Shown: piece after piece, positions 4,028 to 57,019 of the stretch
Layout of the letters: the number at the start of each line of letters is the position of its first letter
Position numbering within the stretch: position 1 is the first letter of the stretch
Position numbers and translations under genes: made by a program
Notes under the pieces: generated by a model
Database searches by the model: none
Seen by the model: the letters and a program-made list of their open reading frames with translations, nothing else
Told to the model about the DNA's origin: nothing
NCBI GenBank assembly: GCA_905178155.1
Contig: CAJINV010000003.1
Coordinates: 7,735,882 to 7,799,881 of the forward strand
Direction of reading: 5' to 3'
DNA: 64,000 nucleotides
DNA from: Amoebophrya sp. A120
Taxonomy: Eukaryota; Protista; Dinoflagellata

Positions 4028-4686
4028 AGGATAATAACCCATGCCCGCAGTAGCTGGCGTTCCCGCACAGCATGTATGATTTCTGTTTTGTTCTCGTATA
4101 CTTTCCTAGTTTTCGCACGCTGGTGTACTTGTTTGTTATTTGAAAGGGGCTGGCCTCCTGTCAAAAAAGTTGGAATGTTCGTATGTACATCAATTATGTT
4201 TCCCTTGTTTCTTTTTTTACCCATTGAATGAATGACCCGACTACGCTAGATGAATCTACCCCGAATGTGCACTTCCTGAATCCTTGCGCAATTGCATTTT
4301 TGAATTCTTTGAGTGGCGGTATAATTTTGCTATCAAGAAAAAAATTGCTAATTTTTTTGGTTTGACTTTTCTTCCGTGCTCACCGGGTTTGACAGCACCG
4401 TATGTGTTCGAATGTACGTCTTCAACGTGGTTACTGCTCAGGTCGTTTGTGCCTAATCGAATTCGTGCCTACTTTGAGTCATGCCTTTTTGCTAATTTCC
4501 ACTGATATGTTCCAAATTGCAATAAAGTATATTGGTTGTGATCTGATCGTCATCGTCATCGTCTCCTCTCCTCTCCTCGCTCGGAAGCAATTGCTGATTT
4601 CAAGTTGCGATGGTGTGCCTGCGCTGCAAGAATTATTGGTGTCAAATCATATTCATGTTGTCGTCTATGCATGGGTCGTACTAGAA

Positions 4687-6264
4687 ATGGCAACAACGTC
4701 GAGTAGTGCGGTGCAGCTGTACACGCGGCAGCACGTTTGGATACGATTGTCCAAGAAAACGCAGCGGTGCCTGGTCGGAATTACGCGAACCGGGGTGAGT
4801 ATGCTGGACTCGGAAGTGGCACGGGTGCGGTTGCCAGCAGTTGGGTCCTATCTGGACTCCAGGCGCCCGCCGGATCGCGAGCCTGACTATCAGCGTCTGA
4901 AGCGGGGGGCTGCACTGCGCGAGGCGGAGGCCGAGGCAGAACTGCGTTTTCGAAGTGGCATTTCAGGATCAACACTAGACCAGCAGCGAGTGATGGCAAG
5001 GCGGAATCGGGATTTGTCGCAGGTTGGCGTTCGCCCACCATGGGCGACGGCAAACGCCGCCGCGTACCGACAGCGGCCCAACCTCGCGCGAGAAAAGCTG
5101 GCTTGCGAACGCAGGTCGCAATGGCTGGATGCGCTGCTCGACAGCCCCGAGGAATTAGAGGCTGCCGTGGCCAAGGACAGGGAAACCGCCAGTGGGTTTG
5201 TATCCGACTTCAAGAATAATTACACGGAAGGAGAGGATTCTCTTCGCGCTGGAAGAACAGGAGGCTCGACGCGAGGAGTCAAGAGCGTTGATGTACTATC
5301 CCATGAGTGCAGCAGCCCTTTCGTGTTACTAGAGGGGTTGTACGCGGAAGCGACTCTGCGTGTACCCCTGAGTGGAAGAGTTGTGGCGGTGAACCAACGG
5401 CTCACGGACTCCCCGTGGCTGGTCTCGCACCATCCAGAAGACCAGGGGTGGCTCTGCGAACTGCAGCTAGAAGACATCCCGAACCACCTGTACGCAGTCT
5501 GGAAGACCCCTGCGAAGCAGCGGACGCGGGAGAGGTTCGGTGCTTGCGTTGTTCCCGGCCCCGAGGGCCGCAGTTTGTACGACCACGATAGTGCAGAAGA
5601 AATAATGAACTGCGCAGAGCTGCAAGCCGCCATCACAGCTGACCAAAGCGACGGCTTCTCTTTTCCAGACACAACATCAGCGCCGCACACAGAGGCGCAG
5701 CTGCTGAGAGAAAACCACGACACTAGACATGACAAACAATTGCAACCAGAATCAGCCGCAAGGGGCAGCGAATTCCTTCTACGGCGAGACTATGTAGCTT
5801 TCGTGCAGCAGCAGGCGCAACATGACGGGGTGCTTGCAGCGTCTTCTAACACGTCTGCGCGAACAAGGGGAGACGGGGCCCACGCGGGTAAGAATATTAT
5901 GACTCGGAGCAAGGAGAATCTGATGCTGCAGCATCTACCGCCGGAGTCTTGGCCTGCCGCGCAATTTTTGTCTGCGGTAGAGGCGGAGGAGTTGCTGGCG
6001 CGAGACGACGCGGACGTGTGTAACTTTCTCCGGCGTGAACTGTGTCTATCTGGCATAACTGAATGGGAAACGCTGCTCGTGTTCCCGCCGGAGGTAGATA
6101 GCTACCAACGGGATCGACTGCATCGGCTTGCGCGGCAGCTGCAGATCTCGTCGGCAACGCAAGAAGATACAAGAACAGATGTGAGTTGGCCCCGGGTTGT
6201 CATGATGCGGCTACAGGACGAAAATACTACAATTGATGCGACAAGACGAGATGTGCGGCAGTAA
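4687..6264 (+). CDS. Glycine cleavage H-protein-like domain (interrupted, no lipoyl Lys) fused to a C-terminal R3H domain
   Basis: YTRQHVWIRL..CLVGIT matches the GcvH N-terminus. LEGLY..LRVPLSGRVVAVNQRLTDSPWLVSHHPEDQGWL matches the GcvH C-terminus. VFPPEVDSYQRDRLHRLARQLQI matches R3H. Start taken at ATG 4687. Confidence 0.7.
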   Translation: MATTSSSAVQLYTRQHVWIRLSKKTQRCLVGITRTGVSMLDSEVARVRLPAVGSYLDSRRPPDREPDYQRLKRGAALREAEAEAELRFRSGISGSTLDQQRVMARRNRDLSQVGVRPPWATANAAAYRQRPNLAREKLACERRSQWLDALLDSPEELEAAVAKDRETASGFVSDFKNNYTEGEDSLRAGRTGGSTRGVKSVDVLSHECSSPFVLLEGLYAEATLRVPLSGRVVAVNQRLTDSPWLVSHHPEDQGWLCELQLEDIPNHLYAVWKTPAKQRTRERFGACVVPGPEGRSLYDHDSAEEIMNCAELQAAITADQSDGFSFPDTTSAPHTEAQLLRENHDTRHDKQLQPESAARGSEFLLRRDYVAFVQQQAQHDGVLAASSNTSARTRGDGAHAGKNIMTRSKENLMLQHLPPESWPAAQFLSAVEAEELLARDDADVCNFLRRELCLSGITEWETLLVFPPEVDSYQRDRLHRLARQLQISSATQEDTRTDVSWPRVVMMRLQDENTTIDATRRDVRQ

Positions 6265-6723
6265 ATGGTTTGGACGAATGATCATCCTGCAGACGACCAG
6301 GAGCTTATTTAGTAGAATATCGATTTTATTCATATTCTTGCAACGCTTGGTGATTTAACTTTTCATGCAAGCTACAGCTGTGGGCACCACACCTGCTGCT
6401 CTGTGGACGAATCAATGCGATGTTTTTTGTCTTTTTTTCTTTACGAGGGTAGCGGTAGTTGTGCGCCGTGATTGAGCGAAGATACTGCAAGTAAGCAGAG
6501 CGAGGATTCGCGTCTTCTAACCTGAAATTATTGACCACTCCGGTTTACCCAAAGAGAAAGGCACTGGGCAAGGAGCGCACTTCTCTACTCGTCGGCTTTT
6601 TCTTTTTACCTTTAGCCGTTTCAGTGCAATTTGGCTCGTTCTTTGCGTAGTTTCCCTAGAATTTATCATGCGTGAGGCTCCTGCAATGTCGTGACCGTTT
6701 ACGTCGGAAAAAACTCTTGCGTC

Positions 6724-9549
6724 ATGACCAGCGAGAAAGTGGTTCACTACCGAGCCTCCCGGGCTTGGATCGAGGAGAAGTTCCGACACGACGTAACGAT
6801 CGAGGTTGATCTGGGCACGGGGAAGGTCATAAATGTCGTCGATGGGACGAAGGGCGACAGTACCAGTAGCATACCAAGGAATAAAGGGAGCGCAGCACCA
6901 GCGAAAGTGATTGACCTGCCGGAGAATGTACTCGTGATGCCGGGGTTCGTGAATTGTCACTCGCACGCGTTTCAGCGGGGCCTCCGCGGGAAGGGCGAGG
7001 AGGGCAAGGGCGATTTCTGGACGTGGCGCCAGGGAATGCACCGTCTGGTGACAGAGCTGGAGGAAGAGTCTTTCAAGAAGCACTGTCTGCGTTGCTTTTT
7101 GGACATGCGGGACGCGGGAGTCACGTCCGTCGGGGAGTTTCACTACTTTCACCACGGAAGGGAAAAACTACAAGCAGCGGCGTCAAGCACGTCCTCGAAG
7201 AATTCTACTTGGGCGTACCGGTACGACGACCTGATTCTGCAGGCGGCAAAGGAGGCGGGTATCCGGATCGTGCTGCTTTCGGCCTACTACGCCCGCGGGG
7301 GCGTGCAGCAGCCTGAATTGAACGCCGGGCAGAAGCGGTTTCGTACGACGGTGGGGAAGGACGGGTCGGACCGCGGGTCCGTGCAGTCGTTCCTGCGTGA
7401 CCAGGTGGAAGGATGTGCCGTGCAGTGCGAGAAAACGCAATCGGTCGGCGTGGTGGCGCACAGCATTCGCGCCCTGACGGTGGAAGATCTGCGAGAGCTC
7501 GTGGGCTACGCAAAGAGAACGAACCGCCCGTTTCACATGCACATGGAGGAGCAGCGACAGGAAATTGAGCAGTGCAGGGCGGGCAACGGCGGCCGCACGC
7601 CGTTGCGGTGCTTTCTGGACGCCAGTCCGCCTGGCGATTTGTCCTACTGCACGCTGGTGCATTGCACGCATTCAAACGGGCCCGACATGGCCGAATACAT
7701 GGGGAAGCGGGGTGGCAACGTCTGCGTCTGCCCACTGACGGAGGGATCGCTTGCGGACGGGCTGCCGCACGAAATCACGCAGCGGCCCGATCGAGTGGTC
7801 GTCGGATCGGACTCGAACTTGCGCATCGATTTGCTCGAGGAGGCACGGTGGCTAGAGTACGGTCAGCGTGTGCGCACAGAGGAGCGAGGCCACTTTGGCG
7901 TGTCGGATCTGGTTCGCGTGCTGACGACTAACGGGGCGCGGTCGTTGGGTCTGCCCGTGGGAAAAATAGCGCGCGGCCACTTTGCGGACTTTGCGCTACT
8001 GGACTGCAGCGTGCCGGTGCTGCAGAACGCGTTGGCGACGGGCGAAGAGTGTCTCGCGGCCTGCCTCTTCGGCTGTTCGGGGGCGGAAGTAGTGGCTGGG
8101 ACAGTTGTCGGCGGGGAACTTCGTGCGCGCCCGAACAGCACGATGCCGCGTATTTTGCAGCCATGGATTCTTGAGGGCGTCAGTGGTGGCAAGAACTACA
8201 CTATTGGCACTACTTCCGGGACGAGCGGGGGTGCACTCACGCGAGACGAGCGCTGCGATTGCCGATGGCGCGTGGATATGATCGAAGAGTGTGAGCCGGT
8301 TTTAGAGGGGCCGCAAGGTCGTGGTCTTGGGAAGGACTCCAGCCCAGCAGGAGCACCGCAGCAATCGCAGCAGAAAACAGCGGAGAACTTGCAGCAGATT
8401 TTGCAGCACCCCGCACCCGATGTGGTCGATCTCGCTCGGGCGTTGATCGACATCGACTCGGTTTCTGGCACGGAGGTGCCCATGGCCAACGCGCTGTCAA
8501 CGTGGTTCCAGGCGCACGGCTACGACCTGGACCTGCAGTCCGTCGAGCCGGAGACTGGGAAGCCTGGCGGCGGGTCGCGCTTCAACGTGCTCGCGTGGCC
8601 GAAAGGCACCAGAGTTGCGGACTTGCCCATCATTTTCAACACGCACATAGACGTGGTGCCGCCATACTTTCCCAGCGACCTCAAGCTCGACAAAGACGGA
8701 CGGGAAATCTTGACTGGGCGCGGCGCGTGCGACACCAAGTCTTTGATCGCAGCGATGCTGCTCAGCGTGCAAACGCCAATCCTGAAGCCGCACCGGCAGA
8801 AGATCGGTTTTCTCTTCGTGGTGTCGGAGGAGACCACGCACCAGGGTATGAAAAAGGCGAACGCGCTGCCGTTGGACAGCTTGAAATATCTGATCGTGGG
8901 GGAACCGACGGCGGGCAAGGTGATGCGGTACCAAAAAGGCATTCTAAAAGTGAAGATCGACTGCGAGGGCGTTGCGGCGCACAGCGGGTACCCACATCTC
9001 GGGGTGAGCGCCACGGAGCTGCTGCTGGATGTGCTGGAGAAAGTTCGGAAGACGGATTTTCCCAGCTCGAAACTGATCGGGCAAACCGACTGCAACATCG
9101 GTTTTCTGGACGGGGGGCAAGCGATCAACGCGCTGCCGGAGCGCGCAAGTGCGAGCTTGATGTTCCGACTGGTGTCGAAGCCTGAGGTGGTTTGGGTGGA
9201 GTTGGAGAAAATTCTTAGTGACGCAAACCAGAAGGCCGGGCAGGAACGGGTGCGTCTCACGAAGATCAGCGAAAACGCGCCGGTAGACCTCACGCACGTG
9301 GACAAGTATTTGGGAAAAAGCGGGAACTGGCAATTTGGAACCGCCTGCTTCAATACGGACATCCCGTACCTGCAGACTTCCGCCAAAGCCTTTCTGTACG
9401 GACACGGAGACATTTGCGACGCGCACTGCCCTCGGGAGTTCATCGGCATCGAGGACTTGCGAAACTGCGTCACCGCGTACGCGCAGCTGGCAAGTCAACT
9501 GTTGCTCTTTGAAGAAGCGTCCGCCTTTCCACCCGCCTCGAAACTGTAG
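6724..9549 (+). CDS. hutF: Formiminoglutamate deiminase (HutF-like amidohydrolase) fused to an M20/ArgE-like deacylase
   Basis: HutF motifs: PGFVNCHSHAFQRG, DFWTWR, GVTSVGEFHYFHH, AHSIRA, HMHMEEQ, LVHCTH, CPLTEGSLADG, GSDSN. M20 motifs: NTHIDVVPP, GRGACDTK, SEET, VGEPT, AHSGYP, YGHGD..AH. One uninterrupted ORF. Confidence 0.9.
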   Translation: MTSEKVVHYRASRAWIEEKFRHDVTIEVDLGTGKVINVVDGTKGDSTSSIPRNKGSAAPAKVIDLPENVLVMPGFVNCHSHAFQRGLRGKGEEGKGDFWTWRQGMHRLVTELEEESFKKHCLRCFLDMRDAGVTSVGEFHYFHHGREKLQAAASSTSSKNSTWAYRYDDLILQAAKEAGIRIVLLSAYYARGGVQQPELNAGQKRFRTTVGKDGSDRGSVQSFLRDQVEGCAVQCEKTQSVGVVAHSIRALTVEDLRELVGYAKRTNRPFHMHMEEQRQEIEQCRAGNGGRTPLRCFLDASPPGDLSYCTLVHCTHSNGPDMAEYMGKRGGNVCVCPLTEGSLADGLPHEITQRPDRVVVGSDSNLRIDLLEEARWLEYGQRVRTEERGHFGVSDLVRVLTTNGARSLGLPVGKIARGHFADFALLDCSVPVLQNALATGEECLAACLFGCSGAEVVAGTVVGGELRARPNSTMPRILQPWILEGVSGGKNYTIGTTSGTSGGALTRDERCDCRWRVDMIEECEPVLEGPQGRGLGKDSSPAGAPQQSQQKTAENLQQILQHPAPDVVDLARALIDIDSVSGTEVPMANALSTWFQAHGYDLDLQSVEPETGKPGGGSRFNVLAWPKGTRVADLPIIFNTHIDVVPPYFPSDLKLDKDGREILTGRGACDTKSLIAAMLLSVQTPILKPHRQKIGFLFVVSEETTHQGMKKANALPLDSLKYLIVGEPTAGKVMRYQKGILKVKIDCEGVAAHSGYPHLGVSATELLLDVLEKVRKTDFPSSKLIGQTDCNIGFLDGGQAINALPERASASLMFRLVSKPEVVWVELEKILSDANQKAGQERVRLTKISENAPVDLTHVDKYLGKSGNWQFGTACFNTDIPYLQTSAKAFLYGHGDICDAHCPREFIGIEDLRNCVTAYAQLASQLLLFEEASAFPPASKL

Positions 9550-10404
9550 TAAGCAACATTTTGCATCATGACAAGATCTATTTCTGACGCTAGTGTGGGA
9601 ATGAATGGTGGTAATAAATGAATGTGGTATAATTGAAGTAGTAGTCGAGGAGAAGGTAGCCGGAATTGTAGCGTTTTGAAAAATTCACAAAAGGTCGCCG
9701 GATGCTGGAGGACCGGCATCAAAGAGGCATCGAGTTTAAGAGCTTTTCGATGCGCTATAAGCCGAGACTGCGATTGGCACTACGTTTGTTGAAGTTGAGG
9801 TACTACTAGGTTGTCACTCAACGTGAACTCTTCCTAACTGAACGCACCGAAGTACCCAGATGATTTTTTGAAGGATGATCACTATCACAGGTTGAACAGT
9901 TCGCTTGTTGTTCTACAATTCGAAGCATGCCGCTCGTGATACGTGTAGACTTTTAGTACGGACATGGAGAATCGTCTCTTGCCCGAAGTCTCGACAGAAT
10001 TAAGACGCTGTATTTCGTTGCTCGGAGTCGTGAATTCAGAGTGAAATAGAATCCACAAAGCAGTTTCTGGTCGTCATTCGTAAAGGTTTCGGGTCGTAAA
10101 AGAAGAAGTTCGTGGAGTGGGTCGTTCTCGAGAAGTGATGTCTTCGGAAGAAAATGGGCTGCGGAATTTTTCTGCAATGCTCAAAAGCAAATGCAAATCG
10201 ACCATTTTTACTGCTAAGAATGAAAGCATCTTCCACTGACTTTTAGCGCCGTGAGGACTCTTTTGTGTACAAAACAAGAGCGCTTGCTTACTGCTAAGTA
10301 GCTTAGTGAATAACAACTTCCATAGACTTTGTCAATTTCTCTTCTGGTTTTCGCCAGAAAAAGTTTGCCACGTCTCTTGCGCAACAAGTTCACATGCAAC
10401 GGGA

Positions 10405-13400
10405 ATGCCTCCTATGAGCAGCGTCATGGACGAGCCAGAGTTGCCAACACCGCAAAAAACCGGGGAGGAAGGCTTTGAACCGGAGGCTAATGCCGGCTTC
10501 AGTACTGCAACGTTTTATTTTCTTGCGATTTCTTACTCTTCTTATTGTTTGTATCTTGAAACGTACTAGCGGTAGAAATTCATTTACCCGAATTCATTTC
10601 GAGAAAGCAGAATTCGCTAGTAAGTGTAAGTATGGTAATGTCAACGCGGACTCACTCTCAAAATTCAGTACCAAATAACAAATCACACAGAATCGCCGGT
10701 GAAGACGCCCGCGGCGAAGGCGACTGATGGATTTTTCAAACTGTACAAGGTGAGCTCCTTTTCTAGTGACCTGGACAATGACTACAACCACATCACGCAG
10801 GAGGAAATTTCCAACTGGGAAACCGAGTACCGCCTGGACAACGGTGCGCAGGAAAAATGGAATCGCATGGATCTCGAAGACAAGCAGCGCATCGTCGCGC
10901 ACGGTACTACATTCGGAATTAATGTGGTTAGTTCGTACAAGAATTATTCCTTCGCTCTAGAAGATGTAGTTGGAATTATCTCATTGACGAATGCAGCACG
11001 ACCGAGTCAGAGTCACACTGCAAAACACCTTGAGAATAATTGCGCATGAGTTCTTGAGTGAGTAGTTTTGTTAACGACGGCTTTCTTGATGTCCTCTCAT
11101 GAATGTGTCTCCACAGGTCCGATCCAGGGTGACAATGCCAGTGCGAGCTTGATGGCGCGCGTCGCGCAGCTGAACGCCAAGAAGAGACAGAAATACGGCA
11201 AGGGCGGCGGAGGCGGTCGGGGGCCCGCCATCTTGCACCAGAACGGCAAGGGACCATACGGCAAAGGATTCCAAGGGAAAGGCTGGAACGTGCCGATGGG
11301 ATTCAAACGTACCTTTCATTTTTGTAGTGTTTGCAGCACAAAGACAAAGTTTGCATCTGACGAGTTTCCTTTCGGGTATCAAAAATTTATGCCTGCACAC
11401 CGCCCTAAGAAATCAAATAACATCAAAAACAGCGTCACGAAGCGGCTGGGACGGCTGGGGTGCAGAGTTCGGAACCGACACCGGAGCCGGCGAAGTCCCC
11501 GTTCTGCGATTGAAGCAAGTGCCGTACCAAGTCAGTGCAGAAGCGATTCACGACTGGTTTGGTCACCACAACAGAAACATCGTTGGCACGGTATAGAAAC
11601 AAGACAAATTTAATATTAGGTGCACGTGCATCGGCTCGTTTGCTTCGGCACTTAGTGGATTGAGCAGAAGTGTTATGCGGATAAATGTTTTGTAGCCGTT
11701 CCAGGGTGCTATCGACATTCAAAATTCTATGAAAATTTGAAAAAAAAGATCCGCATTGACCGGCAAAATGGTGTCGCGCAAGTAGAGTTTAGGAATCTGG
11801 GAATGGCCTACGCGGCAAAGGCTGCGAAGGACTCTGCGCCGTTGAAGGGACATATGGTGGACATCATCGGGCCCATGAAGATGGACGAAAACGGAGGTAC
11901 TGATGGCGTTTTCTGTCCGAGTGTTCAAGAAAGGTTATTGCAGAACGTGCTTTTTCTTTTTGCAGAGCGTGCACTTTAAAACAGGCATGGATGAAAAAAA
12001 ATCTGAAAACCAAATTTGACAGTTGTCGGCAATGTTTTGGAAGGCGAATTGAAGGACTTTTTCGACCACCTGGCAGCGGAAGGCGAGGACACGGAAGCGC
12101 TCAAAACCATATCGCACTGAAATTTTCAAAGCTTGTTGAGTTAATGCTTTCGTTGCGTTTTTCCGTGCAAAACGCTTGGGCAGAATAGTTTTCATGTTTT
12201 CAGTCCGTGCATCCGGGAAAGACAATTCAAGTACTTACTTCTCATGATGGACGATAAGCACAAAACTGCCAACAATGAAGTTTGACTCATCAAGAGGGGT
12301 TTCTTATCCTAGGATACTAGAACAGTGCGGAGATGCAGAGCAAATTTAACGAATGGAAGAACGCGAGGAAGCCGGCGGCGGCGGTCCAGCGACCGGCTGG
12401 AACGCACCGTGCGGCGTATAACCGCGGTATGCCGGTGCCGGACTTCGGATCACCACCCCAGGGCAAGGGCTACGGGTATGGAGAGAAAAAAGTTTGTCAC
12501 AATCACTAAATTGCAGGTTTTGCATTACAAATTTTCTCAGCATCACAAACTTTCCTTGTATTGCAGAAACACTAGGGAAATCCCTAATGAAGTTTGGCTG
12601 TGATGCATTTTTACGCATGACAAACAACAATTTTGTATTGCAAAAATGCGCATGAGTGATCGTGACGAACTTTTTTTCTTTGATAACGGGGGCGCCAAGG
12701 GCAGTAGCTTCGACGACGGTAGCTGGGGCAAGAAGGTATGCATTGCAAATATGTCTGTGTCTGGAAGAATGCATGGATGTTTGTCATGCTTGTCTGGCAT
12801 GACTCTTAAATCTGTTATGCACGTTACCCAAGAGCTCCATTTTTCTGTGATGCAGAGACGTAGTCTGTCATGCAGAATAGGCAACACCTAGAAGCTCAGA
12901 AACTTGTCATGCTGAGCCAGCATCTGTGGCCTCATCATGAGACGCCGCCCAGCATCACAAGTTTCCAGACCCAGACACTTTTACATTTGATAGAAGGGCG
13001 GAAAGAACAACTGGAGCCACAAGAACCGCGGAAAGGGCGACGGCTACAATCAGCGGGGCGGAGGGGACGACTACCACCAGGACCACGACAGCTGGGGCGG
13101 ACACCAGCAGTCCTGGGGCGGGGGTAAAGACGGCGGTTGGGGCAAAGGCGGAACCAACTACAATCAGGACTACCCGATGTCGGACATGCCGGGCAAGGGC
13201 TACGGGAAGAAAGGCAACAAGGGCGGCCAGCAGCACGACCACGGTGGCGGTGGTGGAAAGGAGGGAATGCTGGCCGCGGCGCTGATGCAGTTGCAGAGTG
13301 GCGGCGGCAACAGTGCCGGCAGCTCCTGGGGCGGTGGCAACAACAACGCCAACAGCGGCGGTGGTGACGTACTCGCCGGGTTACTCAGCGGTATGGGAGG

Positions 13401-53817: not shown

Positions 53818-56168
53818 CTAGATTTCGTCGTCGTCCTTGTCATCGTCCGCATCGATGTCGCCGTCATCGTCTTCAGCCGGTGCTGGTGTGGTGGTCGTGG
53901 TCTCGGACTCCTTCTTCTTCTCGAGCTCCACCTTGTTCAACGCTTCCCACTTTTCCGCGAACTTGTCAGCCTCAGCCTCGTCGTCCGTGATGATCAAGTT
54001 GTCGAAGAAGGAGCCAGCTGTGTGAATGAATCAATGCGGTTTGTTGATCATCTTCATGTTGCTGGAAAACAATCCGCACGACTAAGCGGGAAATGCAGCG
54101 ATGCTGCTCAACACAAAAAGTCACGCTATTGTGCTTTGTCCTAGCACTGAAGTTGTGATACAAGAACCAACAATTATGCAGAGAAGAATTGATAGTACCT
54201 TTCACTTGCCAGAGGTCAAAGCCAACGAACGCAAACTCGTCGTAGGCGTACAGGGAATCGTTGGCCTCATACTCTGGGTTCGCAATCTTCTTGGGGGCCC
54301 ATACGCCCTTGTATTCCGGGTTCTTGATGCGCTTTGGCTTCCACTCGCCCTTGTAGTCCGGGTTGGCCTTCTTCGGTGCCTCCCACTCGCCATCCTCCTC
54401 AGCATCCCAGTCCTGTGTGTGAAGTTTTTTCATCGAAGACTACGCTGCACTTCGACCTACGCGTGCCCCTACGCACGGTCAAGTTGTACGCTCGGTATGT
54501 ATCGCCGGACCCCGAAATAACTGTAACAGCAGCAACCCGTGAGATAATCAGTTGCACAAGCATGTAAATAGATGAATGAAAAATCACCTCTGGCTTTTTT
54601 GCATCCGGGTCCTCGATCTCGGCTTCTTCGACCCAGTCCTCCGGCTTCTTGTCTTCCGGGTCATCCATGAACTCCTCGTCAACCTGAAGGTTTCAAATTC
54701 AATGAATGGAATCAGCCCTAATAGAAGAGTTAAGTAGTTGCGGCGTTGTCGACGAATGAGGTGCCATAGACCTACAACTCTATCAATCTTCAGACCTTCA
54801 ACCCAGAGCACAGCAACGCAATCAGATTAGGTTTGCGAATCATAACAAGTACCCAGTCGGCGGGCTTTTTGTCCTCCGGGTCATTGATTTCCTTGGCGGG
54901 AAGCAAGTCCCAGTCTTTCTCGAGCTCGCCGCTGTAGATTTCCTGCTTGTCGACGAGGACTTTTACCGTGTTATCCGGCTTAACAACCAGTCGGTACAGG
55001 TTCGTAACTCCGTCCTTATCCTGCTTGTACGGAAGGTCGCTAGTCTTCAAAACGTTCTTACCTGAGGAGGAAGCGAATTATCTATTGATGTTTTTCACAT
55101 TTCACATGTCGGAGAGAACAAGCGAAGGACAGTCCTTCGCTTGTTCTCTCCCTAGTTTACTGGATTGTATTTCAAACAACCCGGTAGTGAATTGTTGAGT
55201 CAGAGTAGTGTCGACAGCGCTCCACTGGAAAAATGGAGCCTCCGTCCGACGTCGAACTTTGTTGTCTTGTAAGATACCTAACTGAAAAGAGTGTCAATAT
55301 CAGAGACCAGCGGTAGTGTCTCGACAGTGCCCCCTCACAGGGAGGGCCTCCGTCCGACTTCGATCTTCTGGTAGGATTCTCGTCATGATCATGAGAGGCA
55401 AGCCTTCCTGCCACCTGCTTCACAACTCGTGCTTGTCAGAAGCAAATTATACGAGTTTGTCTTCCTAGCTGGCCCGAGGGACGCAGCTCTGTTCGACCTC
55501 TATCTCGTCGCGTTCATCCTTACAACTGGAGTTGTATTTCCCTGCATGTCAATAAATGACACATGTTAATACCACGACAGTTACTTACTTACTTCCTTAC
55601 CCTTGTAGCTGAAGATCAGGTGTGTTCGCTTGTTGTAGCCGCACTTGTCGGGCCCGAACATGATGTTGTATACGGTTGGGTCGCCAAACTTCGTCGCGTC
55701 CTCCATCTTTGGTCCTGTATAATTCGTTTCATAGTTTTGTGTCGTGTCAAGTCTAGTGCATCGCGCTACCTGGCTGATGTCAAAATCGTGTACACATACA
55801 CCAAAGCAGAGACACTTCTGACAGGACAAAAAAAATTGTGTATACATAGTACCTAGCTTGATGTAACCGCCGCCACACTCGATGTCCTTGTCGTACTTGG
55901 CCTGGTACTGCACGATGAGCGTCTTGCCCTTGTTTGAGAAGGGTTCGAAGCTGGCGCTGGCGCCGTAGAAGCGGGCGTCCTGCGTGGTCGCGAGCGCCTT
56001 GTCCTCCTCCTCATCGGCGGACCACTTGCCGGCTTTGATCTCGAAGGTTCCCATCTCCGAGTCCGATTTCCACGTGGACGCGGTCCACTTCGACATGTCG
56101 CTGAAGGTGTCGCTGAAGAACACCTCGGCGGCGGCGCCGCCGACGAGTACGGAACTCAAACGATTCAT
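53818..56168 (-). CDS. CALR: Calreticulin, multi-exon
   Basis: TTQDARFYG, PFSNKGKTLIVQY..IECGGGYIKL, YNIMFGPDKCG, P-domain repeats DPEDKKPEDW and GEWEAP/GEWKPKRIKNPEYKG, VGFDLWQVK, acidic tail ending DDDEI*. Confidence 0.95.
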
Positions 56169-57019
56169 CTTCCGAAAACGATCGATGTGTGAGTTGTAGC
56201 CCGGAGTGCAAAGACCACGGTCCACAAAACTTTCCGATAAGGTAGAGACTTGTGCTAGGTTGTATATATTTTTTGCGAAAATAGAATTTCGGTGTTTTTT
56301 ATGATGGAAGAAAAAAAAGGGAACATCAATCACGATCAGCAAACGCACGCATGCCATGGAACATCAATGACAAAAGCCATAGATCATCGACGGCGACAGA
56401 ACAGATCCGTTGCAAAATGGGATCACACCCGGATACGCACTGTCCGGGATCGAACGTGCTGCGCCGGAAAAAAAAAACGCGTCAGAAACAGTTGTCATCG
56501 ATCGAAACTGGATCTGCTTTCATCAAACTGATCCTGAATTGTGAAAACTGTGATGAAGGTTCAAAGATGCGCAAAGAATGAGGGGAACTGAAAACTGCGG
56601 GCACCGAAGTTGTGTAAGCCAAGACCGCGAAGCGCAGCGACTTCTATTGTCCGGTAAACGCAAAATAGTACACGCCGCCCGTGCGTCCCTTTGGACATTG
56701 ATCGGAATCGTTGGAGGAAAATTATAGGACGTGAGAGAAGGCAGTCAGGACCTGTTTCACGTTATGGATCTGTCGAGATAGGCTTCCTTCCTGCGAGTGG
56801 GTTGAACACACTGCCTACCAAGTTGTCACTGCACGACGGGGCTGCAGCCTCTACAACCACTCCTCTGCGGGACGTGAAATTCGATTCTTACAAGCAAGCC
56901 TTTCATTTGAAACATGCATTCTTGTTCTTCATCGAGTTGGTGTTACTTAGAATCATTCCGGGAGACTACTGCAATTCCAAGATCATACACGAGAGACGTG
57001 AAAGACATAATTGCCCGTT

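Follow-up and report, generated by a model that had tools for sequence, protein, structure and literature searches.

How does a eukaryote complete the breakdown of histidine when a single gene joins a HutF-type amidohydrolase to a metallo-deacylase of the M20 family? The usual scheme of histidine catabolism in eukaryotes uses FTCD or, in Trypanosoma cruzi, formiminoglutamase. Here, we describe such a gene in the dinoflagellate Amoebophrya sp. A120, located at 6724-9549 on the forward strand of a window of 64,000 nucleotides (GenBank contig CAJINV010000003.1). This conserved bifunctional gene is real, and we propose that its product probably turns N-formimino-L-glutamate (FIGLU) into glutamate, formate and ammonia. 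The HutF half would convert FIGLU to N-formyl-L-glutamate and ammonia, and the M20 half would remove the formyl group from N-formyl-L-glutamate to give glutamate and formate; one protein would therefore carry out the final two reactions of histidine breakdown by the type II route, which yields formate, in a folate-free manner. The M20 half would be a non-homologous replacement for HutG within an otherwise DapE-like family. Taken separately, the predicted deiminase activity of the HutF half is very probable, and the predicted N-formyl-L-glutamate deformylase activity of the M20 half is probable.

Several lines of evidence support the two-domain architecture. First, 6724-9549 is a single open reading frame (ORF) of 941 codons, open throughout, and over its length it is identical to the annotated A120 protein, which at 955 residues is the spliced form. 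Second, Pfam places Amidohydro_1 at residues 70-466 (E 3e-36), followed by Peptidase_M20 at residues 637-924 with M20_dimer at residues 737-834, and the M20 half exceeds the gathering scores of both of its families (PF01546, 57.3 vs 24.6 bits; PF07687, 67.2 vs 21 bits). Third, the AlphaFold2 model comprises two confident domains and a disordered linker (mean predicted local distance difference test score [pLDDT] 81.6; predicted template modelling score 0.54), with a pLDDT of 95.5 for the M20 domain. Fourth, in an alignment of 22 fusions, H79, H81, H273, E276, H313 and D363 of the HutF half and H641, D670, E702, E703, E727 and H901 of the M20 half do not vary in any row that has a residue there, and the His-Asp-Glu-Glu-Glu-His metal set of the M20 half is intact in 22 of 22. 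Thus, an earlier sequence-only reading, which had recognized a HutF-type and an M20 domain with intact metal-ligand motifs in this frame, is borne out. The same reading had described the linker as low-complexity, which does not hold: the linker is disordered (pLDDT <50 at residues 473-551), but its entropy of 3.97 bits is like that of the domains (3.90-4.14 bits); its length ranges from 17 to 109 residues among homologues. Because the linker is flexible, the two domains would probably act as tethered neighbours rather than via a tunnel.

The N-terminal half resembles HutF. The top six models of an NCBIfam scan are all HutF, with the next family at E 1e-21; phmmer matches the half to P. aeruginosa HutF (3mdu) at E 2e-51; and the same structure occupies ranks 1-3 of a fold search (template modelling score 0.84 on the target). 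Eleven fusion residues, H79, H81, H273, D363, E276, H313, R102, R249, Q84, Y141 and H246, align with 3mdu. We take the active site of 3mdu to consist of the ligands of a single metal (HxH, His and Asp), a catalytic Glu/His pair and two substrate-binding Arg residues, roles that Fedorov et al. 2015 reportedly assigned in P. aeruginosa HutF. The half does score below the HutF cut-offs (NF006681, about 321-322 vs 362 bits; TIGR02022, about 277-280 vs 413 bits) and has a structural identity of ~29% with the characterized P. aeruginosa enzyme, as would fit a domain that has drifted to another amidine substrate, with the pair serving a different two-step route. The six top-ranking HutF models and the retained active-site residues speak against such a drift, as do three upstream Hut enzymes in the sister strain AT5.2, and we consider it very unlikely. 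Among the AT5.2 annotation entries listed are histidine ammonia-lyase (HutH) and urocanase (HutU), and the peptide set contains a protein with HutI motifs (PMC6482013). The upstream enzymes on which the sequence-only reading had made its pathway depend are therefore present in a close relative. Neither the FTCD nor the FGase family was found among the AT5.2 annotation and peptide entries listed, which form part of the set; the single arginase-family gene listed has a fungal arginase as its best match, and the fusion orthologue is labelled "probable carboxypeptidase", its top Swiss-Prot match being at 31% (PMC6482013).

The C-terminal half is an M20 protein of another kind than HutG. A Pfam scan of the fusion protein found no match to FGase (PF05013), the HutG domain, which counts against the half being a HutG but not against its working like one. 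ArgE- and DapE-type models rank best in the NCBIfam scan, all below their cut-offs: the acetylornithine deacetylase model TIGR01892 scores 126 vs 297.7, and all DapE equivalog models are far below theirs. ArgE and DapE structures, including those from E. coli, are also the best fold matches (Z 35-36; root-mean-square deviation 2.5-4.2 over 342-356 residues; identity 20-23%). These matches, together with the observation that most of the wider M20 family looks DapE-like (dap, asd or lysC genes accompany it at 55 of 80 bacterial loci), would fit a biosynthetic DapE or ArgE that became fused to HutF for unrelated reasons. The fusion M20s, however, form a clade apart from the dap-operon copies and differ from them at positions 706 and 877. 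Moreover, in the AT5.2 table (PMC6482013) the DapD and DapE rows are blank while DapL is present, and four genes are assigned to ArgE, the fusion gene never being named; ornithine and arginine synthesis was reported as not detected in A120, and arginine synthesis likewise in A25, as far as the available parts of these sources go; and oomycetes are described as making lysine via a DapB-DapL fusion (excerpt of PMC2705460). Because of these host data, a biosynthetic role of the M20 half is unlikely, and we regard this explanation as a whole as highly improbable.

Gene context in bacteria links the residue signature of the fusion M20s to hutF. His706 and Asn877 are both present in 22 of 22 fusions, and a motif scan found His706 in 0 of 56 dap-operon copies. 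We surveyed 251 Planctomycetota genomes, of which 32 matched the M20 and 30 loci were fetched. A hutF-like gene lies directly downstream at 14 of these loci, dap genes are present at 13, and neither at three. His706 is found in all 14 hutF-adjacent copies, Asn877 in 12 of the 14, and neither residue in any of the 13 dap-adjacent copies (lysine operons) or the three others. In the tree, the hutF-adjacent copies are split over at least two places. The hutF-like partners of these copies have HutF as best model at four of four distinct loci checked, above the cut-off at one. Urocanase is encoded in 13 of the 14 genomes with the M20-hutF pair, compared with 162 of the 251 overall. Counted from hutF, which 23 of the 251 genomes have, 13 genomes have a His706-type M20 next to it, three have FGase, two have an ArgE-type M20 and five have none of these. 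Among 51 Holophagae genomes, an M20 of the sister clade of the fusions occurs in nine, all with hutF elsewhere in the genome, and in 0 of the 41 genomes without hutF; a tenth genome with hutF has FGase.

The same context recurs in 80 metagenomic hutF-like loci, in which FGase was counted within 4 kb. An ArgE-type M20 is directly adjacent at 15 loci (two being near duplicates), an allantoate-type M20 at four, FGase is present at 12, peptide deformylase at three, and none of these partners at 46, many of them short. No locus (0 of 80) has two of M20, FGase and the peptide-deformylase paralogue together; with kinship ignored, the chance of zero overlap between M20 and FGase is 0.03. Several of these loci lie within hutU-hutI-hutF operons. 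We observed ArgE-type genes directly beside hutF, some in hut operons (L083-L093, L098, L105, L113, L122, L154, L246, L247); two such bacterial proteins were scanned, and both pass the acetylornithine deacetylase cut-off. These genes may be mis-annotated deformylases. As a separate observation, an M20 subtype with Ser and Gly at the two positions occurs in dapA/dapB/dapD/asd/lysC operons of Acidobacteriota, Calditrichota and Planctomycetota (L012-L080, L186-L206, L229-L244) and is a probable DapE, missed by the NCBIfam models in the one copy scanned.

The position next to or fused to HutF is occupied in other cases by a peptide-deformylase paralogue. HutF is fused to a peptide-deformylase domain in eight hits (P0036-P0043), with the EGCLS and QHExDHL motifs intact. 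In bacterial operons, a paralogue with the motif NPRYPYKP is encoded between hutU and hutF (L135:455-1027, L155:5318-5890, L143), and this motif is common to the operon paralogue and the N-terminal HutF-fused copies (eight clusters grouping with eukaryotic HutFs). The operon and fused deformylases are 42-44% identical; a search for hut-linked deformylases gave no plasmid match. This paralogue is likely a third N-formylglutamate deformylase. Because it takes the same operon and fusion slot as the M20, a formyl group is indicated as the substrate moiety. Altogether, the conservation of the fusion, the hutF-adjacent bacterial subtype with matching residues, the parallel deformylase fusion and the Hut genes of AT5.2 support the idea, put forward in the sequence-only reading, that the M20 half may replace HutG.

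The fusion is not confined to Amoebophrya. Both Pfam families are present in 34 of 73 hits of similar length, a layout that the sequence-only reading had suggested searching for, and the carriers include four Amoebophrya strains, two Perkinsus species, many oomycetes and Sphaeroforma; two of the 34 resemble read-through bacterial gene pairs. In the ESM Atlas, a 69-member cluster with the HutF-M20 layout is named only "Formiminoglutamate deiminase". Two supplementary files of the oomycete fusion list of Morris 2009 gave no match to HutF-M20 domain terms. The nearest free-standing relatives of each half include bacteria, which could point to assembly-merged genes or bacterial contamination. By contrast, one DNA contig and one spliced RNA-like contig (6624-9545 joined to 9694-9873) each span both halves, the G+C content at third codon positions (GC3) of 0.75 lies within the range of neighbouring genes (0.60-0.88), and the same fusion recurs in more than 30 database clusters. 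The recurrence and the spanning RNA-like contig rule out such an artefact, which we consider next to impossible. Because this single contig runs across both halves, they are not transcribed apart; separate transcription was an outcome that the sequence-only reading had held to be damaging to its proposal.

For the phylogeny, 44 HutF domains chosen from the hits were analysed under LG+G4 with a careful search; all other trees are quick searches without a mixture model. In the HutF tree, a single clade (99/98) unites the M20 fusions, the deformylase fusions and a nematode HutF; it is nested among HutFs of the Gemmatimonadota/Thermoanaerobaculia type, some of its rows have an inferred eukaryote label, and the order of M20 and deformylase fusions is a polytomy. 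In the quick trees, the M20 halves form a group with stand-alone proteins of brown algae and of Capsaspora (88-93), and this group is sister to a mostly Holophagae clade (95-97), apart from dap-operon copies. From these placements it follows that the nearest bacterial relatives differ between the halves and that the fusion is old. The suggestion that the gene is of bacterial origin stands, therefore, as an ancient event; recent horizontal transfer into Amoebophrya was rejected on the basis of the trees and of GC3 matching that of the neighbours. Two further observations concern the eukaryotic copies. The M20 half of Sphaeroforma (P0007) groups with Perkinsus and Amoebophrya (98-99) rather than with Capsaspora, a hint of transfer among eukaryotes. 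Nematodes have a HutF of the same eukaryotic clade without an M20 half (P0367, P0371, P0377; Aphelenchoides record); the nematode-type HutF forms a 71-member atlas cluster in which Nematoda is the commonest phylum, and the P0367 gene model also takes in a MutS-like gene. Some animals may, on the strength of these HutF sequences, use the formate route.

Besides the missed cut-offs of both halves, several points weigh against the proposed function. In Gerdes et al. 2011 (PMC3223725), an M20 protein had been predicted as an alternative N-formylglutamate deformylase, and the S. avermitilis protein was inactive, a case in which gene context of this kind misled. We found no other experiments on an M20 as HutG replacement, so that the only one is negative. 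A genome-wide exclusion of M20 and FGase was considered and rejected, as the exclusion holds only locally: of the 14 Planctomycetes that have the M20-hutF pair, 10 carry a weaker FGase-family gene at another site, as do two of the nine Holophagae with the sister-clade M20. FtcD-like genes are present in five of five genomes of one tested set and one of five of another. The Holophagae pattern probably represents one lineage. Seven His-type bacterial M20s come from genomes without a clear hutF: one lacks hutF and urocanase, three are from Bdellovibrionia with FGase and no hutF, and three are from small genomes. Finally, all splice data derive from a single sample, in the form of four contig sets that are only presumed to be RNA.

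The three small genomes were rejected as hutF-positive, since the TRZ/ATZ type is the better-scoring match of their amidohydrolase. These genomes (G057, G058, G059; L213, L214) have urocanase and a His/Asn-type M20 without clear HutF, FGase, FtcD or formiminoglutamase, and in two of the three the TRZ/ATZ-type amidohydrolase lies ~14-16 kb from hutU.

With the HutF half acting as predicted, the M20 half might instead act on another N-acyl compound linked to the turnover of histidine, such as N-carbamoyl-L-glutamate or N-formyl-L-aspartate, or as a broad aminoacylase, with formylglutamate handled elsewhere. The negative assay of the hut-associated M20 would fit this explanation, as would the scores of its allantoate-type branch against the N-carbamyl-glutamate amidohydrolase ErtE, the His-type M20s without hutF, the stand-alone His-type M20 proteins of brown algae, Capsaspora and Mortierella, and the FGase-family genes that accompany the M20-hutF pair in many genomes. 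One representative of the allantoate-amidohydrolase branch gave no significant BLAST match to the fusion M20 domain. Against another substrate stand the deformylase paralogue in the same operon and fusion slot, which indicates the formyl group, and the lack of FGase and FTCD families among the AT5.2 annotation entries listed. We consider a different substrate unlikely and retain N-formyl-L-glutamate as the probable one.

The gene had been read as intronless. This is incorrect, since RNA-like contigs contain a GT-AG intron at the 3' end and the annotated 955-residue protein is spliced; the sequence-only reading also overlooked alternative splicing and a peroxisomal targeting signal of type 1 (PTS1). 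Two donors 3 nucleotides apart in a tandem GTAGT site either keep an -SKL end or substitute a basic tail (Table 1). SKL followed directly by a stop is present in two RNA-like forms as a C-terminal PTS1, import itself being predicted. The downstream joint has a short side of just 28 letters and is marked uncertain by the mapping tool, neither joint was seen in a DNA run that is possibly the source of the window, and intron-retaining pieces in three contig sets may be pre-mRNA or DNA. Two further Amoebophrya proteins have an SKL C terminus, and in the A25 model SKL continues into a basic tail that resembles this one. The genome of A120 is described as encoding six core peroxins, PEX1, 5, 7, 11, 12 and 16 (excerpt of PMC7789003). 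We suggest that donor choice would sort the enzyme, the SKL form to peroxisomes and the basic-tail form to the cytosol or nucleus; that splice-donor choice decides peroxisomal entry is likely, and the tail, by pattern match only, may be a nuclear localization signal (NLS). Splice-controlled PTS1 signals are known from fungi and animals, in which splice choice likewise exposes or hides a C-terminal PTS1 (excerpt of PMC4207609); by contrast, Amoebophrya uses a 3-nucleotide donor shift, and where its PTS1 is masked, the C terminus is a basic, NLS-like tail. Basic NLS-like stretches were also seen in tails or linkers of several HutF fusions (P0003, P0006, P0007, P0039), and several oomycete fusions (P0008, P0010, P0014, P0021) have an Arg/Ser-rich N-terminal extension resembling a mitochondrial presequence. 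The compartment of the fusion may, given this extension, differ by lineage.

Table 1. Features of the HutF-M20 gene in the window
Feature	Position	Strand	Evidence
Approximate transcribed span	6624..9877	+	RNA-like contigs start 6624-6670 and end 9873-9877; depth zero on either side
HutF-type amidohydrolase domain, residues 1-470, predicted N-formimino-L-glutamate deiminase	6724..8133	+	Pfam, NCBIfam, 3mdu, fold, conserved residues
Disordered linker, residues 473-551, in-frame open, not low-complexity	8140..8376	+	pLDDT, entropy, homologue lengths
M20 deacylase domain, residues 560-933, His706/Asn877 subtype, predicted N-formyl-L-glutamate deformylase	8401..9522	+	Pfam, NCBIfam, model, fold, residue signature
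Ser-Lys-Leu and stop, PTS1-type end, kept with intron retention or downstream donor	9538..9549	+	Sequence, translated splice forms
GT-AG intron, upstream donor, 148 nucleotides; stop removed, giving the 955-residue form	9546..9693	+	Joint 9545>9694 in 4/4 contig sets; reproduces annotated protein exactly
Same GT-AG intron, downstream donor, 145 nucleotides; TAG re-formed, giving the 941-residue SKL form	9549..9693	+	Joint 9548>9694 in 3/4 contig sets
Second exon, 14-residue basic NLS-like tail masking PTS1	9694..9739	+	Annotated protein, K[KR]x[KR] scan

In the rest of the window, tblastn found no other hut genes. The next gene (10245-10501, 10691 onward) is covered by RNA-like contigs and has an apparent canonical GT-AG intron of 189 nucleotides at 10502-10690. 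Residues 310-360 of the upstream ORF at 4402-6264 match part of the glycine-cleavage H-protein domain (Pfam E 2e-10); that a one-carbon gene adjoins the fusion is possibly chance. On the reverse strand, the ORF at 55581-56357 resembles a calreticulin gene interrupted by an intron.

The type of pathway is known, and so is folate-free histidine catabolism in a eukaryote, from a report on T. cruzi (PMC12203737). Apparently new are the fusion in eukaryotes, the M20 subtype in the role of a deformylase, the paralogue of peptide deformylase and the splice switch. A full-text search, with subscription papers outside its scope, found no paper on a HutF-M20 fusion, a HutF-deformylase fusion or a eukaryotic HutF route. 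PMC8305020, PMC9240870 and bioRxiv 2026.06.22.733842 contain nothing on the last step of histidine degradation; PMC6176090, the main text of PMC6482013 and bioRxiv 2020.02.12.941195 contain none of the relevant terms; and in PMC10809365 no terms naming pocket residues of DapE turned up. If correct, our proposal fills a pathway hole: alveolates, oomycetes and ichthyosporeans would have the five-step bacterial route, which yields free formate and one more ammonia. It also proposes a substrate for a large uncharacterized M20 subfamily, with a two-residue marker separating the subtype from DapE-like paralogues, predicts a small-molecule role for a peptide-deformylase paralogue, and offers the splice switch as a candidate dual-targeting mechanism in dinoflagellates. 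A broader picture, which we put forward only tentatively and consider doubtful as a whole, would have the formate route ancient and widespread in eukaryotes including nematodes, its last step being catalysed by at least two unrecognized enzymes (the His/Asn-type M20 and the peptide-deformylase paralogue), both of which occur in some lineage as HutF fusions, and the 3-nucleotide donor shift of Amoebophrya moving the enzyme between peroxisome and nucleus. Such relocation would give a local formate supply.

Compared with known systems, the fusion is closest in its proposed net reaction to HutF (EC 3.5.3.13, 3mdu) and HutG (PF05013, EC 3.5.1.68) of Pseudomonas, which likewise yield glutamate, formate and ammonia from FIGLU (excerpt of PMC12772324), and it shares the fold and residues of that HutF. 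However, it is one eukaryotic polypeptide, its second step is assigned to an M20 metallo-deacylase without PF05013, and its nearest HutF relatives are of the Gemmatimonadota/Thermoanaerobaculia types. The SEED role "N-formylglutamate deformylase [alternative form]" (COG0624), as given in Gerdes et al. 2011, embodies the same idea of an M20 in place of HutG; that protein, by contrast, belongs to the allantoate-amidohydrolase branch, was experimentally invalidated, is unfused and is not associated with a eukaryotic HutF. With ArgE and DapE (M20A), the fusion M20 has in common the fold, the two-metal ligand set and the dimerization domain, whereas it is only 20-23% identical to them, falls below all cut-offs, is linked to hutF rather than to arg or dap genes, and has His706/Asn877 where its dap-operon relatives have Ser/Gly. 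The fungal "probable carboxypeptidase" M20s (P20D1 family) include the top Swiss-Prot match of the AT5.2 orthologue, and Mortierella relatives have His706; by contrast, they are stand-alone proteins with an uncharacterized substrate, and Asn877 is not present in two Mortierellaceae rows. Lastly, the formiminoglutamase of T. cruzi (EC 3.5.3.8) also provides a folate-independent end to eukaryotic histidine catabolism (PMC12203737), but does so in one arginase-fold step that releases formamide, whereas the fusion would use two steps and release formate and an extra ammonia.

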